Part shown: positions 24,974 to 46,522 of the stretch, in pieces
Position numbering within the stretch: the first letter of the stretch is position 1
Layout of the letters: each line of letters opens with the position of its first letter
NCBI GenBank assembly: GCA_951406725.2
Contig: OX597814.1
Coordinates: 125,488,001 to 125,552,000, forward strand
Source: Octopus vulgaris
Taxonomy: Eukaryota
Direction: 5' to 3'
DNA length: 64,000 bases
Notes under the pieces: generated by a model
What the model was told of the DNA's origin: nothing
The model's database searches: none
What the model saw: the letters and a program-made list of their open reading frames with translations, nothing else
Made by a program: the position numbers and the translations under genes

Positions 24974-25354
24974 AACTATCTATCTATCTATCTATCTATC
25001 TATACACACACATATATATGGTTGTATATATAAGTACCATATTTTTAAATGCCTACATCATTATATCGACAACTATAGGCAATAAAAATAAAAATAACTA
25101 CTTTTGTCCATAGGCTGAAACAGCTGTAAGAAGTGATTTTAATGATTTCAATAATTTATATTGACTTTTATAACTTGTATTCTTATCTTATATGTATTGA
25201 ATTATAAGATATATATGTATGATATTGAGGTTCTCAATATTTTGTTGAATGAATAAATAATCCAACATTCTAATATCCGAAAGTTGATGAACAAACTAAA
25301 TTTGTTTCTCCATTTTCTATTTGTATTATATAAATATATATATATATATATATA

Positions 25355-25612
25355 TTGTTGGCATCCTTTTTTGTCTCGGGAGACAATGGAGTTGCACATA
25401 AAATAATCTAGTCCGGCTTTTACATTTCATGTCCTAATACATCTCCTGTTGTGACTGTGTAGTCCTATTCTGGACAAACACTCCCTCTGGCAGGTGCCGC
25501 AAATGTAGCGAAGACTTTGCCTGGCTGGTTGTAATGTCATAGTTTCTTGCTGACATCTTTTCTTGTCTTTCCATTTGTCCTCTCTCCCTCTGTCACTCCT
25601 TTGTGTTCCCTC
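25355..25612 (-). mobile_element. RTE-clade LINE 3' end
   Basis: Minus-strand YICGTCQRECLSRIGLHSHNRRC zinc-finger motif, followed by tail CCATTGTCTCCCGAGACAAAAAAGGATGCCAACAA. Confidence 0.8.
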
Positions 25613-25667
25613 TTTTACGGTATATATATATATATATATATATATATATATATATATATATATATAT

Positions 25668-25882
25668 ATGTACCTGGGACCTTGAAGACTGCTTTAATGC
25701 AAGAAAGTATACTAGACCCTTAATATTTGATATTCAATATTTCATCTATTCAATAAGACAATCAATACTTCATTTCATTTTACACTATATATACTATTTA
25801 TACAATATATTCTATATTCTACATTAATATTTTAAAGAATATAAATAAAACAAAAAAATAGACAGAGTTGGAATTCCTTTGA
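25668..25882 (+). mobile_element. Penelope-type terminal-repeat fragment in (TA)n with degenerate hammerhead
   Basis: TTGAAGA..TGC/GCA..GAAAGTATACTA motif. The end AATAAAAC..AGAC..GTTGGAATTC is shared with 46095-46285. Confidence 0.6.
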
Positions 25883-26160
25883 ATATATATATATATATAT
25901 ATATATATATATATATATATATCGGAATATTCTTCTGCATATATATATATATATATATATATATATATATATATCGGAATATTCTTCTGCATATATATAT
26001 ATATATATATATATATATATATATATATCGGAATAGTCTTCTGCATATATATATATATATATATATATATATATATATATATATATATATATATATATAT
26101 ATCGGAATATCTTCTATATATATATATATATATATATATATGCAGAAGACTGTTCCGATT
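25883..26160. repeat. Compound tandem repeat [ATCGGAATATTCTTCTGC(AT)n] x4 with a final inverted unit
   Basis: Units at ~25921, 25972, 26026 and 26101. Inverted GCAGAAGACTGTTCCGAT at 26142-26159. Confidence 0.85.
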
Positions 26161-26750
26161 TAGGCCTGCATGTTTTTGTGAGCCACCAACAAATTTATAA
26201 ACTTCCTAGCATGTCCGGCATGTTACGCAATCTTTCATCACGAACATACTGTAATCAACCTTTTGTTAGACCTGGTCATTTCGTTAGTGATTTGGGAGCC
26301 CTGCCTGAGAAAGACATATATCACAGGCTAAGTTCACCGCATTCCACTTCACAAATTGCGCGTTTACGTGCAGATCACTTAGATTCTCCATGATAAATGT
26401 GCGCTTTTTGCAAAAATAGCCATATCATCCTTTATCCATTTCTCCATTAGAGGCGATCAAAAGCTTTTCTTTCCCAGTTGACATCCTTTATTTCAAATAC
26501 TTTCAACGAAGACATTACGCAGTCCTTAAACGGTGGACTTGGTTTGCACGGAGAAAGCCTCCCATATACCAGCATCTGCTTTGAAATCTTCTGATCATTC
26601 ATTCGTACAAGGTCCAACGTAAACGCTGCTTGTGTATTAATACGCCAATTTTCAAAACCGCTGAGTTCAAAGGCTGTTAAAAACCAGCTGACATTCAGAA
26701 TGCCTTTACCGTAAATGATATTTGCACATCAGAGATATGCAAATATCAGG
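26161..26750 (-). mobile_element. Degraded RTE-clade LINE 3' portion
   Basis: Minus-strand fragments ILNVSW, LVRMNDQKISKQML.YG, FKDCVMSSLKVFEIKDVNWE and Cys/His finger remnants. Confidence 0.7.
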
Positions 26751-27174
26751 TTACAAGTTATGTACGTATTTATACAAATCCCACTTGATTGAAATAAAAC
26801 TCTCCCAACTTAATTTGTTCGCATCTCATTTGAATTCTGTGAAGAAGAGTTTCGATAAATTTCAAGGAAAATATGTCTTATCTTTTTCTCTATTTGCTTC
26901 TTCCTGTCACTAGGCTGCGGTCATGCAGAGGCACCACCTGGAGGGGTTTAGTGGAACGAACCGACGCCGGTACATGTTTTCAAGTTCGGTGTTTATTCTA
27001 TCGATCTCTTTTACTGATCTATCCACAAAGTTACGGGTACCAAAATTAATCAACACCGGATGTCAAGCGGTGAAAGATAAATATAGACACACACACACAC
27101 ACACACACACACACATAATCACACGTACACAAATACACACGCGCGCACACACGCACACATATATATATATAATA

Positions 27175-27383
27175 TATTTCTTTATTGCCCACAAGGGGCT
27201 AAACATAGAGGGGACAAACAAAGACAGACAAACGGATTAAGTCAACTACATCGACCCCAGTGCGCAACTGGTGCTTTATTTATCGACCCCGAAAGGATGA
27301 AAGGCAAAGTCGACCTCGGCGGTGTTTGAACCCAGAACGTAACGACAGATGAAATACTGCTGAGCATTTCGCCCGGCGTGCTA
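27175..27383 (-). mobile_element. SINE family A
   Basis: Reverse complement of family A. Confidence 0.88.
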
Positions 27384-43364: not shown

Positions 43365-43844
43365 TTGTTTTCTGAAATTACGGATGCAAAAGTAAAAAAA
43401 TGTGGTAGATCGAACTGTGCAACATGTCCAAACCTGTTAGAAGGATCAGAATTCCTCTTCAAAGAGGGACAGAAATTCAAGATCAAATCTAACTTTACTT
43501 GTGCCTCCGAAAACATAATTTATGTCATAAAATGCTCGGGCTGCCACCAAGACTACGTGGGATCCACGGGACTATCACTCAGACGTAGATGCACACTGCA
43601 TCGACAACAGATTGCACTCCCAGAATACAGAATGATACCTTTTAGTGAGCACATTGAGAAATGCACAAAGCAACTACTACCACAATTTTTAATCTTTCCA
43701 TTTTACCAATGTGCTATCGGATCATCAACACAAATTAGACTAAACAAGGAAACATTCTTCATTGAAAAGTACAAACCCAGACTTAACCATTCCAACATAC
43801 TGATACAGAGAAATTCACACCAAGGGAAAGGCAAAAAAATTTGA
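43365..43844 (+). CDS. Penelope-type GIY-YIG endonuclease domain (open C-terminal fragment of a transposon ORF)
   Basis: CGRSNCATC, FTCASENIIYVIKCSGCHQDYVGSTG..LRRR..H, and RLNKETFFIEKYKPRLN. Confidence 0.85.
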   Translation: MFSEITDAKVKKCGRSNCATCPNLLEGSEFLFKEGQKFKIKSNFTCASENIIYVIKCSGCHQDYVGSTGLSLRRRCTLHRQQIALPEYRMIPFSEHIEKCTKQLLPQFLIFPFYQCAIGSSTQIRLNKETFFIEKYKPRLNHSNILIQRNSHQGKGKKI

Positions 43845-43952
43845 GCGATTATCTCCCTTACACCGGAAGAAATCACTCATTACCTCCCCTTATTTAGAAC
43901 TCTTTTAAACATAAACATAACGATAACTCTGTTCAACATAAACATAACGACG

Positions 43953-43996
43953 TTAGAAATTTGAAAAGCTAAACGCGAAACCGGTCTTTCTTCTAA
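43953..43996 (+). ncRNA. Candidate minimal hammerhead ribozyme in the PLE terminal repeat, U3:A8 core variant
   Basis: AGAAA-T-TTGAAAA-GC-TAAAC-GC-GAAA-CCGG-TC-TTTCT, about 110 nt downstream of the GIY-YIG stop. Confidence 0.6.
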
Positions 43997-46094
43997 ATTA
44001 TGTCATTGTAGGAAAAAAATTTTTAATATTCTTCAGACATATTGACTCAAATATATATTTTTTAACCTTTTAGCCTTCTGTAGTTTTTTCACTTTTTACT
44101 ATTTTCTATATATATATATATATATATATATATATATATATATATATATATATATATATATATATATACATGTATATACATATATATATACATACATACA
44201 TATATATATACACACACACAGACCATCTTTCGTAACATTCCACCCCACCCACCCGAAAAGCACATCTCACTACATTAAAACATCGACCTCGAGCTTTACT
44301 TTTTCTCAACCATTACATTTCCCAATTTCTCAACGAAACGAACTATACAAAATGATTCCATATTTCTAGGCAACCGAAATTATAAATAAATATCATGCAA
44401 TGAATTAGAATAGGAAAGTATTTGAAATAAACATTTCTGAAAGTTTTTAAAATATTTGTTGCAAGCATCTAAAATAAACTCGTTGAACACTTTTGTGAGA
44501 GTCAATTAGATATGTGCAGACATTGTGACTCGTCACTAAAAATAAGGTCGACAACCGTTGAAACCCACCTCAGCAGCGAGTGAATACACTAGCAAGAACT
44601 GTAATACAGTATAAAATAAAGGCGGCAAACCAAATACATTGGTTTGCAAATAAACATCTGCTCTAACGTAGTTTTTAAAATAAATATGTAGACTAAGTGG
44701 AATTAGTTCCGAAAAAGATGCCAGCTTTAATGGATTTTTAGCGTTGAAATAAATGACTGGAATAAAAGATTAGAGGTTTTTAAATGGAGTCAGTTTACTT
44801 GCATAAAACTTATGCAATGTCGCATCACTTTGTATGTATGTATGTATGTATGTATGTATGTATGTATGTATGTATGTATATATATATATATATATTATAT
44901 ATATATATATATATATATATATATATATATATATACATATATACATATACATATACATATACATATACATATACATAGATAGATATGAATATAGATATAA
45001 ACATACATATACACATACAAACACACACATATATTCATATATATATATATATTCATACACACACACACATACACATATATACAACAAACTTTTATAGTTT
45101 AACAATATAGTGTAATGAGACTAGAGAATATAAGCAACTTGTAAGTTCATCAGGAGACATGCATACAAAGACACATACATATATATAAATAAATACATAT
45201 ATACAAATATATCCAAATATATATATTCGTACATATGTGTGTATATATGTATGAATGTATATATATATATATATATATATATATATATATATATACATAT
45301 ATGTGTGTGTTTAGACATTATATATTATTATTGTGCGTATATAATATATATTTTTGTGCGTGTATGTATACATGTATGTATGTGTCTATATATGTGTGTA
45401 TGTATGTGTGTATGTATGTATGTATGTATGTATCAATGTATGTATGTATGTATGCCCGACTCTTTGTATTTTGGCAGAAGCGCTGAAACTCTTTAGAAGC
45501 TCATTAGTAAGGACTGCACACGTAATATAAAGGTCCAGCAATGCCATACTGATTCCACCTGCGAATTATATCCAGGTCACACGTGTCTGTGGGATACTCG
45601 GCCACTTTGTATGCAAATACTATGAGTAGGTCATTCAGCTGAACGAACAGAACAACAGAACAACAGAACAGCTAGACGTTCGTACGACGTTTTCCATAGG
45701 AGATTACTTATGTGTGCGTGTGCATGCATTTGCACATATGTGTGCGTGTACGTGTCAGTGATTGAGAGATACGCACACATACACACGCATACAAACACAC
45801 ATATATATATATATACATACATACACGCGGACACGGACACCCACACAACAAACACACACTGACGCACATAGACATAAATACACACACATACACACACACA
45901 CACACACACAATATATATATATATATATATATATATATATATATATATATATATATATATATATATATATATATATATATATATATATATATATATATAT
46001 ATATATATATATATATATATATATATTATATATATATATATATATATATATATATATATATATATATATATATATATGGTGTGTGTGATTGTGT

Positions 46095-46285
46095 ATAGAA
46101 GAATATATTAATAAAAAGAATTCCAACCTTGTCTGATTTTCACGTTTTATTTACAACTTATAATGATATATTATAAGATAATATATTATAATTGAATAAA
46201 ATAAAATGAAATAGTAGAATGTTAAATATTCATTGTGATTGAACTAGTACTTTCATGCATTGAATTCTGCACTTCGGGTTCATGT
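46095..46285 (-). mobile_element. Penelope-type terminal-repeat fragment with degenerate hammerhead
   Basis: Minus strand GAAC-CCGAAG-TGCA-loop-TGCAT-GAAAGTACTA-GTTC. Related to 25668-25882. Confidence 0.6.
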
Positions 46286-46444
46286 AGTAGTGTTGACAGT
46301 CATGCTTCACAATTTTTGACTGTAGCAAGATGAGTGATTCTGTGCTAGAGTGCTAGGTTTTGCAAACTGTATTCTGACCAATCAGTGTGTAGTATCACTC
46401 AATTACTTATATATATAAAATAAAAACATGATGTGAAGGATTCA

Positions 46445-46522
46445 GCGGTACATATGTTTCGGGCCTTTATTAGACAGATTTATAACAATGCATAATGTAT
46501 GTCTGTGGCCTTCTTCAGCCGC
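46445..46522 (-). ncRNA. Candidate type-I hammerhead ribozyme with canonical core
   Basis: Minus strand GCGG-CTGAAGA-AGGCC-long loop-GGCCC-GAAA-CATATG-TA-CCGC, with a GUA cleavage triplet. Confidence 0.7.

Follow-up and report, generated by a model that had tools for sequence, protein, structure and literature searches.

Which elements carry the hammerhead-shaped motifs found in a 64,000-nt stretch of contig OX597814.1 of Octopus vulgaris, and why do so many of these motifs depart from the canonical catalytic core? The stretch, hereafter the window, supplies all coordinates given below, and the host genome (2.8 Gb in 227 contigs) is rich in microsatellites. Seven such motifs are present, each from a separate high-copy repeat family, and a genome search seeded with each of them returned 720-2,460 first-look candidates per family. 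A sequence-only reading had placed all seven motifs and had read the pair between core positions 3 and 8 (3:8) as C:G, G:C and, twice, U:A; both the positions and the pairs were recovered here. We consider it likely, at a probability of about 0.8, that the motifs are hammerheads in the pLTRs (Penelope-type terminal repeats) of Penelope-like elements (PLEs) from seven families, left behind as 5'-truncated or leader-only (TA)n insertions that were likely copied from uncut RNA, and that these ribozymes would cut slowly, as dimers or with element protein.

Seven motifs and the Penelope-like parents of five families

The copies in the window, with the family (A to G) to which each belongs, are as follows.

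25019..25328 (start approximate), forward strand: 5'-truncated terminal repeat of family G, truncated in helix II; only the hammerhead 3' half is present, at 25108-25133
25672..25880, forward strand: leader-only pLTR stub of family C between (TA)n runs; hammerhead 25676-25719, 3:8 pair C:G, 8-nt palindromic helix III
31171..31310, reverse strand: family B copy with complete hammerhead; motif 31247-31297, 3:8 pair G:C, core GUGAACA with an extra G behind A9, helix I of 7 bp, helix II of 5 bp, cleavage triplet UUU
31309..31490, forward strand: inverted partner copy of family B, truncated inside the core and ending in a ~60-nt tail (limits taken from loose ends) and (TA)n
36924..37172, forward strand: 5'-truncated pLTR of family D with a small 5' inversion; hammerhead 37082-37121, 3:8 pair U:A, core UUGAAAA
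43296..43844, forward strand: GIY-YIG frame of family A; Pfam GIY-YIG E=0.006, below the curated cut-off
43955..43991, forward strand: family A hammerhead in the 3' pLTR, 3:8 pair U:A, extra U ahead of the core, 2-bp helix II; the element ends at ~44106 at (TA)n
46080..46409, reverse strand: 5'-truncated 3' end of family E; hammerhead 46240-46282, 3:8 pair C:G, U4C, U10.1.U11.1, A9 absent from the window copy
46408..47037, reverse strand: 5'-truncated 3' end of a young Hydra-clade element, family F; canonical hammerhead 46445-46522, 3:8 pair C:G

At family level, every motif has three helices around a core with G5, A6, A9, G12-A14, A15.1-U16.1 and H17, which is the type I arrangement; the window copies of E, which has lost A9, and of G, of which half is present, are incomplete. 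The strict consensus C3-U4-G5-A6-N7-G8-A9 is found in families F and G only, and A, B, C, D and E deviate from it at family level. One extra nucleotide lies between helix I and UGA in the motifs at 25676 and 43955, the motif at 46240 has C at position 4 (its window copy additionally lacking 2 nt, including A9), and the motif at 46445 is fully canonical, with the core CUGAAGA and a long helix II; a decayed core near 46470, considered for this last motif, was ruled out, the true core being 46512-46518. Private damage or truncation affects 4/7 window copies, and the mismatches of the 25676 copy in helix I and of the 37082 copy in helix II are absent from family copies.

The core of family A, UUUGAAAA, recurs in 27/29 other copies; that of family C, CUUGAAGA, which contains one extra nucleotide, is present in the window and in 26/29 other copies; and UUGAAAA of family D is shared by 24/29 others, with a helix II that is perfect in family copies. 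Family G has the canonical core CUGACGA, with a helix II domain of ~110 nt and a helix I of 2 bp, and among its 29 other copies 18 read CUGA(C/U)GA, 2 differ by single changes and 9 lack the 5' half. DNA searches return the copies closest to those of the window, which biases such locus-based tallies toward the window, and exact-pattern counts are unbiased at free positions. The extra U of family A is likely derived, because a sister family without it, of canonical spacing, has a perfect 7-bp helix I. The possibility, allowed for at the outset, that family consensi would prove canonical does not hold for 5/7 families, and the variant cores (U3:A8 in two families, G3:C8, U4C, and an extra core nucleotide in two families) are family traits and not decay.

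Five of the seven families have protein-coding Penelope-like parents, four Neptune-type (A, C, D and E) and one Hydra-type (F), these clade calls resting on linker motifs and not on reverse transcriptase (RT) phylogeny. Their autonomous copies combine RT with an endonuclease (EN) of the GIY-YIG type at the C terminus, recognized in E by Pfam, in A, C and D by tblastn and open reading frames (ORFs), and in F by Hydra motifs. The parent of E is a young Neptune-type element in near-identical tandems of 4,271 bp, with a frame of 775 amino acids that spans both domains (RVT_1, 29.5 bits at a cut-off of 29.6; GIY-YIG, 24.8 at a cut-off of 22.6); family A has a near-full RT in loci L152 and L153, with RT and EN both present; a family C parent with RT and EN lies in locus L083; and RT or EN fragments occur in 7 of the 30 loci of family D and, for L109, L113, L114 and L118 at least, lie upstream on the element's own strand. 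The F frame, for which there was no Pfam match, carries the CxCX5C, CxxC and CxH marks given for Hydra (Craig 2021, PMC8557442). Partial tandems and inverted 5'-truncated copies form pLTRs, as in PLEs, and inverted pairs of copies were found in families A, B, C, D and F.

These families thus resemble the Neptune/Hydra EN+ PLEs of PMC8557442 in the C-terminal GIY-YIG, the linker CX2-5CxxC (A, E) or CxCX5C (F), the partial tandems, the inverted 5'-truncated copies, the optional tail (30-40 bp in that account), the bias to (TA)n targets, the 3' hammerhead and the frameshifted ORF1, whereas hammerhead core variants are not described in the accessible parts of that account. The minimal hammerheads that Cervera and de la Pena (2014) found in pLTRs are likewise type I, with a short palindromic helix III, a bulged base after A9, U3-A8 covariation (~1,300 matches in Schistosoma) and many families per genome, mostly as single truncated copies and inverted pairs. 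The rows seen of that survey's alignment differ from our set, however, in comprising C3:G8, U3:A8 and one U3.G8, with no G3:C8, U4C, extra nucleotide before UGA or cephalopod row; the survey descriptor had a fixed core, so that the missing variants are weak evidence.

The proposal that several (TA)n-targeting Penelope-type families carry the motifs is thus borne out. That the motifs abut (TA)n is correct for several families and incorrect for the 31247 copy, which has no adjoining (TA)n target of its own and sits within a 1.96-kb Helitron-like unit. The sequence-only reading had also seen small derivatives, either solo pLTRs or retrozyme-like; solo pLTRs fit the families of 25676 and 31247, and the retrozyme-like description of small derivatives is not supported, given the RT/GIY-YIG parents of 5/7 families, the lack of short same-strand tandem arrays among 51 family B pattern matches in 50 loci and 5' ends that lie off the cut site.

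Several features of these elements were noted in passing. In families E and A, ORF1 and the RT frame overlap in the -1 frame, and the stretch they share holds a slippery heptamer rich in U (L151:7909 and 3638, minus strand; L152:3719), and the E frame break is the same in all 4 copies spanning the overlap; a programmed -1 frameshift seems likely in both families. The Hydra-type frame of family F at L316:1354-3696 has a ~1.9-kb 3' untranslated region and starts in a (CA)-rich repeat. At 46408-46410 the family E copy sits right at the TA run with which the family F copy ends on its 3' side, a nested insertion of two PLE clades in one (TA)n, and locus L298 holds a similar chimera of B and C. Right after the family C stub, at 25883-26165, a short non-repeat spacer together with (TA)n makes up a unit of ~52-54 bp that occurs four to five times, and a spacer in inverted orientation lies at ~26143.

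Insertion ends and the copied RNA

The 5' ends of the copies avoid the cut site. In family E, a pattern starting at the cut site gave 1,065 matches versus 1,152 for the pattern of the upstream core, and 0/30 copies start at the cut while 5/30 start at -71..-82, ~30 nt below a TATA-like box. Half of the family C copies (15/30) have their 5' end at -25..-28 from helix I, ~30 nt below TATATAAA, and the 31 non-passenger matches of family B have no common sequence beyond ~18 nt upstream except inverted self copies. Because 5' ends avoid the cut site in 5'-truncated and leader-only copies alike, the copied RNA was likely uncut. Two classes of 3' end were found in families A, B, C, D, E and F, flanking an optional 35-60 bp tail and each lying at a short element-encoded TA run (at +142 and ~+188 from the cut site in family E; with and without the tail in family B). 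Most clustered matches have (TA)4 within 350 nt downstream, (TA)n being common genome-wide.

We propose that the RT/GIY-YIG protein would nick (TA)n and that reverse transcription would be primed at one of two internal sites, the short TA runs on either side of the 35-60 nt tail. The RT would copy through the intact hammerhead and then stop early, giving truncation and fold-back inversion, or would run on to the point where the RNA itself begins, 20-80 nt upstream of helix I, leaving stubs. Selection on master copies would keep the 3:8 Watson-Crick pair; since this pair is kept, cleavage presumably mattered at some step, and the slowing changes (U4C, the extra nucleotide, G3:C8 and the UUU triplet) may be tolerated because cleavage is not needed for each insertion. 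Poseidon PAc of Anolis (Frangieh 2024, PMC11167929) is similar in its two RT start sites flanking the AC-rich tail (family E here) and in the use of unprocessed RNA as insertion template; in that system the tail is accounted for by internal initiation of RT, protein is required for the hammerhead to cut, C3G/G8C restores cleavage in part, and catalytic mutants still insert in vitro. The role of hammerheads in PLEs is called unclear in Craig 2021 (PMC8557442), and Frangieh 2024 (PMC11167929) found it dispensable in vitro.

Core variants and predicted activity

In 1.59 Mb of retrieved DNA, with loci biased toward the window's families and 47 singletons set aside, 19/20 multi-copy clusters have a main core with a Watson-Crick 3:8 pair, namely 13 C:G (including family C), 5 U:A and 1 G:C, and the 20th resembles a microsatellite chance match. 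The covariation of the pair that had been claimed is thus seen at family level among the aligned cores, family C being ambiguous (C3:G8 plus an extra U, or U3.G8 plus an extra C); covariation of H17 with position 3, also considered, was ruled out by family D (U3 with A17). U4C recurs in four of the multi-copy clusters. Family E itself reads C at position 4 in 1,138 exact matches, U in 14, and A or G in none; in contigs of three other organisms U4 accounts for 72-100% of depth, and the run holding the family E element at 97% of words reads C4. Because the contigs of these other organisms mostly read U4, U4C in family E is derived and recent. A further minimal-hammerhead family, outside the window (L369-L380), has 8,968 exact 32-mer matches, the first 100 listed of which read C4 in 74, U4 in 24 and A4 in 2; CpG decay alone is an unlikely source of this U4, at 24% versus 3% change at a neighbouring CpG.

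Do these motifs still function? The view that competes best with ours holds that the variant motifs have lost all or nearly all catalytic activity and ride along as passengers, and that families with damaged cores amplify equally well. The history of U4C, which arose in the family E lineage and then spread to 1,138 copies, agrees with this view, as do the roughly 74% C4 of the second family, the extra nucleotides fixed in families A and C, the impaired cleavage with insertions near C3 and lowered in vitro activity with U4C (Perreault 2011, PMC3088659), and the finding that catalysis is dispensable for insertion (PMC11167929). However, positions 3 and 8 change only as compensated pairs, which is not expected from neutral drift, the helix I variant of family B from U-A to U.G keeps its pair, the family B core is unchanged in four organisms, and U4C is still viable in a viroid (PMC3088659). 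We therefore regard dead passengers as unlikely, while taking the possibility seriously.

Self-cutting of the motifs is predicted, and the points that we count in favour of activity are the compensated 3/8 changes, the pair-keeping helix I variant in B and the helix III duplexes of five families; helix III is a palindrome of 6-8 nt through which two copies could pair, and the predicted energy of that duplex is -4.8 to -8.3 kcal/mol in families A, C, D, E and F, as against a weak -0.2 in B (6-nt duplex). Several points weigh against our reading. The family B helix III palindrome extends to 10 nt and is predicted to trap A13, A14 and U17; when the A and F motifs are folded in isolation, helix I is not favoured (P=0.02 and 0.05); and the UUU triplet of family B, the slowing of cleavage by U4C and by insertions near C3 in published assays (PMC3088659) and the partial rescue by the G3:C8 swap (PMC11167929) all count against activity. 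The derived state of U4C in family E, like the B palindrome and the folding of A and F, speaks more for activity that is weak or gone than for function that has been kept. The proposed RNA start sites derive solely from where insertions end and how motifs are spaced, and religated or circular RNA would equally yield copies with an intact cut site. Finally, no parent was found for family B (RT/EN in 0/60 loci with 1.5-kb flanks, and none in upstream flanks) or family G (RT/EN in 0/30 loci with 1.5-kb flanks), in each case for a small share of the copies. On balance, the best fit would be cleavage that is slow and aided by protein or by dimer formation, with selection on it weak but real.

Family B and the genome-wide range of cores

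Family B is non-coding and sharp-ended, with a length of 145 or 200 bp. Its exact 31-mer has 1,290 matches in the genome, and among the first 100 listed G3-U4-C8 is read in 93 and C3:G8 in 0. The family is also present in thousands of contigs of other organisms; in contigs of four organisms core positions 3-9 have no difference reaching 5%, and the U-A to U.G change is a common variant in helix I. Three diverged copies were found in a 600-kb genome sample (see below), which extrapolates to ~10^4 copies genome-wide. The window copy is carried by the following unit, which we take to be Helitron-like from its terminal signatures.

30033..31990, forward strand: non-autonomous Helitron-like unit of 1.96 kb, with 5' TC and a 3' hairpin plus CTAG, recently amplified, carrying the family B insertion as a passenger

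Passengers of this unit make up 20/51 family B matches, including the window copy, and the idea that family B is very young because 40 copies are identical was accordingly ruled out, the identical copies being passengers of one Helitron-like unit. The unit has also captured a short interspersed element (SINE) fragment and a 103-bp tandem repeat, the fold-back family B insertion having multiplied with it, and related ends lie at ~28232 and 29990-30032.

Could the short elements instead be retrozymes, which spread via hammerhead-cut, circularised monomer RNAs? Family B is short, non-coding, sharp-ended and very abundant, its parent was not found, its type I hammerhead is shared with the non-LTR retrozymes of Cervera and de la Pena 2020 (PMC7229834), and a 2026 preprint derives animal retrozymes from pLTRs. 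However, retrozymes form tandem repeats of 170-400 nt and their hammerheads are canonical (PMC7229834), whereas family B forms single or fold-back copies with a PLE-type tail, lacks a canonical loop-loop hammerhead and has no short same-strand tandem arrays among 51 pattern matches in 50 loci, the sole double being 6.4 kb apart. Its ends, moreover, are neither permuted nor at the cut site, and we consider a retrozyme origin quite improbable.

Within the Penelope-like reading, a more far-reaching idea can be offered tentatively, and we doubt it considerably more than we believe it: family B may be a natural active G3:C8 hammerhead on a leader-only mini-retroelement of 145-200 bp, with ~10^4 copies and conserved in four related organisms, and the Penelope elements of this genome may time and again have weakened their own ribozymes (by G3:C8, by U4C in four families and by extra core nucleotides), so as to leave enough RNA uncut for reverse transcription. 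If true, this would provide a natural allelic series, including a U4/C4 pair in one element lineage, for testing the hammerhead role in Penelope transposition. The genome holds young families whose ORFs look intact, and their cores range from canonical (F) to U4C (E), U3:A8 (A, D) and G3:C8 (B), which would allow catalytic rate to be set against transposition success.

The system as such is known, and what is left as new is the natural high-copy G3:C8 core together with recurrent U4C in amplifying families. The literature searched, whose coverage is incomplete and leaves some key papers and supplements outside, yielded G3:C8 as an engineered variant only and no paper joining hammerheads, cephalopods and retrotransposons, and the G3:C8 core may thus be unreported in nature. 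In Poseidon PAc (PMC11167929) G3:C8 is an engineered rescue mutant, whereas in family B, which has at least 1,200 exact copies, it occurs naturally as the state of the family. Perreault 2011 (PMC3088659) describes U3:A8, U4C (in a viroid), U10.1.U11.1 and insertions near C3 (in saltern sequences) as rare single examples; here, in contrast, U4C occurs in four multi-copy clusters and variants make up 14/24 sample matches. The 2026 octopus repeat annotation (PMC13282606) lists 31 recently active Penelope-like families, ribozymes not being mentioned in its main text.

The sample consisted of 60 evenly spaced 10-kb stretches (600 kb), searched, with 8 shuffles, by a descriptor in which positions 3, 4, 7 and 8 were free; G5, A6, A9, GAAA, UH and helix pairing were fixed by the descriptor and are thus not independent evidence of conservation. 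Among 35 matches, 24 combine a Watson-Crick 3:8 pair with a pyrimidine at position 4 (1.1 in shuffles), 2 have a pyrimidine there but a non-Watson-Crick pair (3.25 in shuffles), and a purine occupies position 4 in the other 9 (4.1 in shuffles). The 24 comprise 10 canonical CUGANGA, 5 C3:G8 with C4, 8 U3:A8 (one with C4) and 1 A3:U8, this last probably a chance match. Thus 14/24 are non-canonical, with ~1 expected by chance, and fixed CUGANGA descriptors would miss over half of the motifs in the sample, as the sequence-only reading had anticipated. It is hardly credible that the motifs arose as matches by chance or by decay within canonical CUGANGA families: private damage or truncation in 4/7 window copies and the canonical cores of F and G point that way, but the excess of 24 matches over 1.1 in shuffles and the variant cores that A, B, C, D and E have at family level already refute it.

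Extrapolation of 24 matches per 600 kb gives roughly 10^5 motifs genome-wide. The same descriptor finds 3 motifs in the window, 47 per Mb as against 40 per Mb in the sample, and the window is no richer in motifs than the genome average. Within the window a strict descriptor picked up 2/7 motifs, whereas 100 local dinucleotide shuffles averaged 0.12 and a single one of them reached 2; private damage or truncation in four window copies accounts for the low recovery, and the genome sample is a much stronger test. Among the 246 Rfam matches to the window, the best 150 include no hammerhead and are microsatellite-driven microRNA matches, uninformative for minimal variants.

Elsewhere in the window, fragments of reverse transcriptase frames lie at 57064-57925, 13482-13802 and 2098-2679, which we take to be of the CR1/RTE type of long interspersed element (LINE), and the fragments at 518-874, 29000-29400 and 48448-48852 presumably represent mariner transposase.

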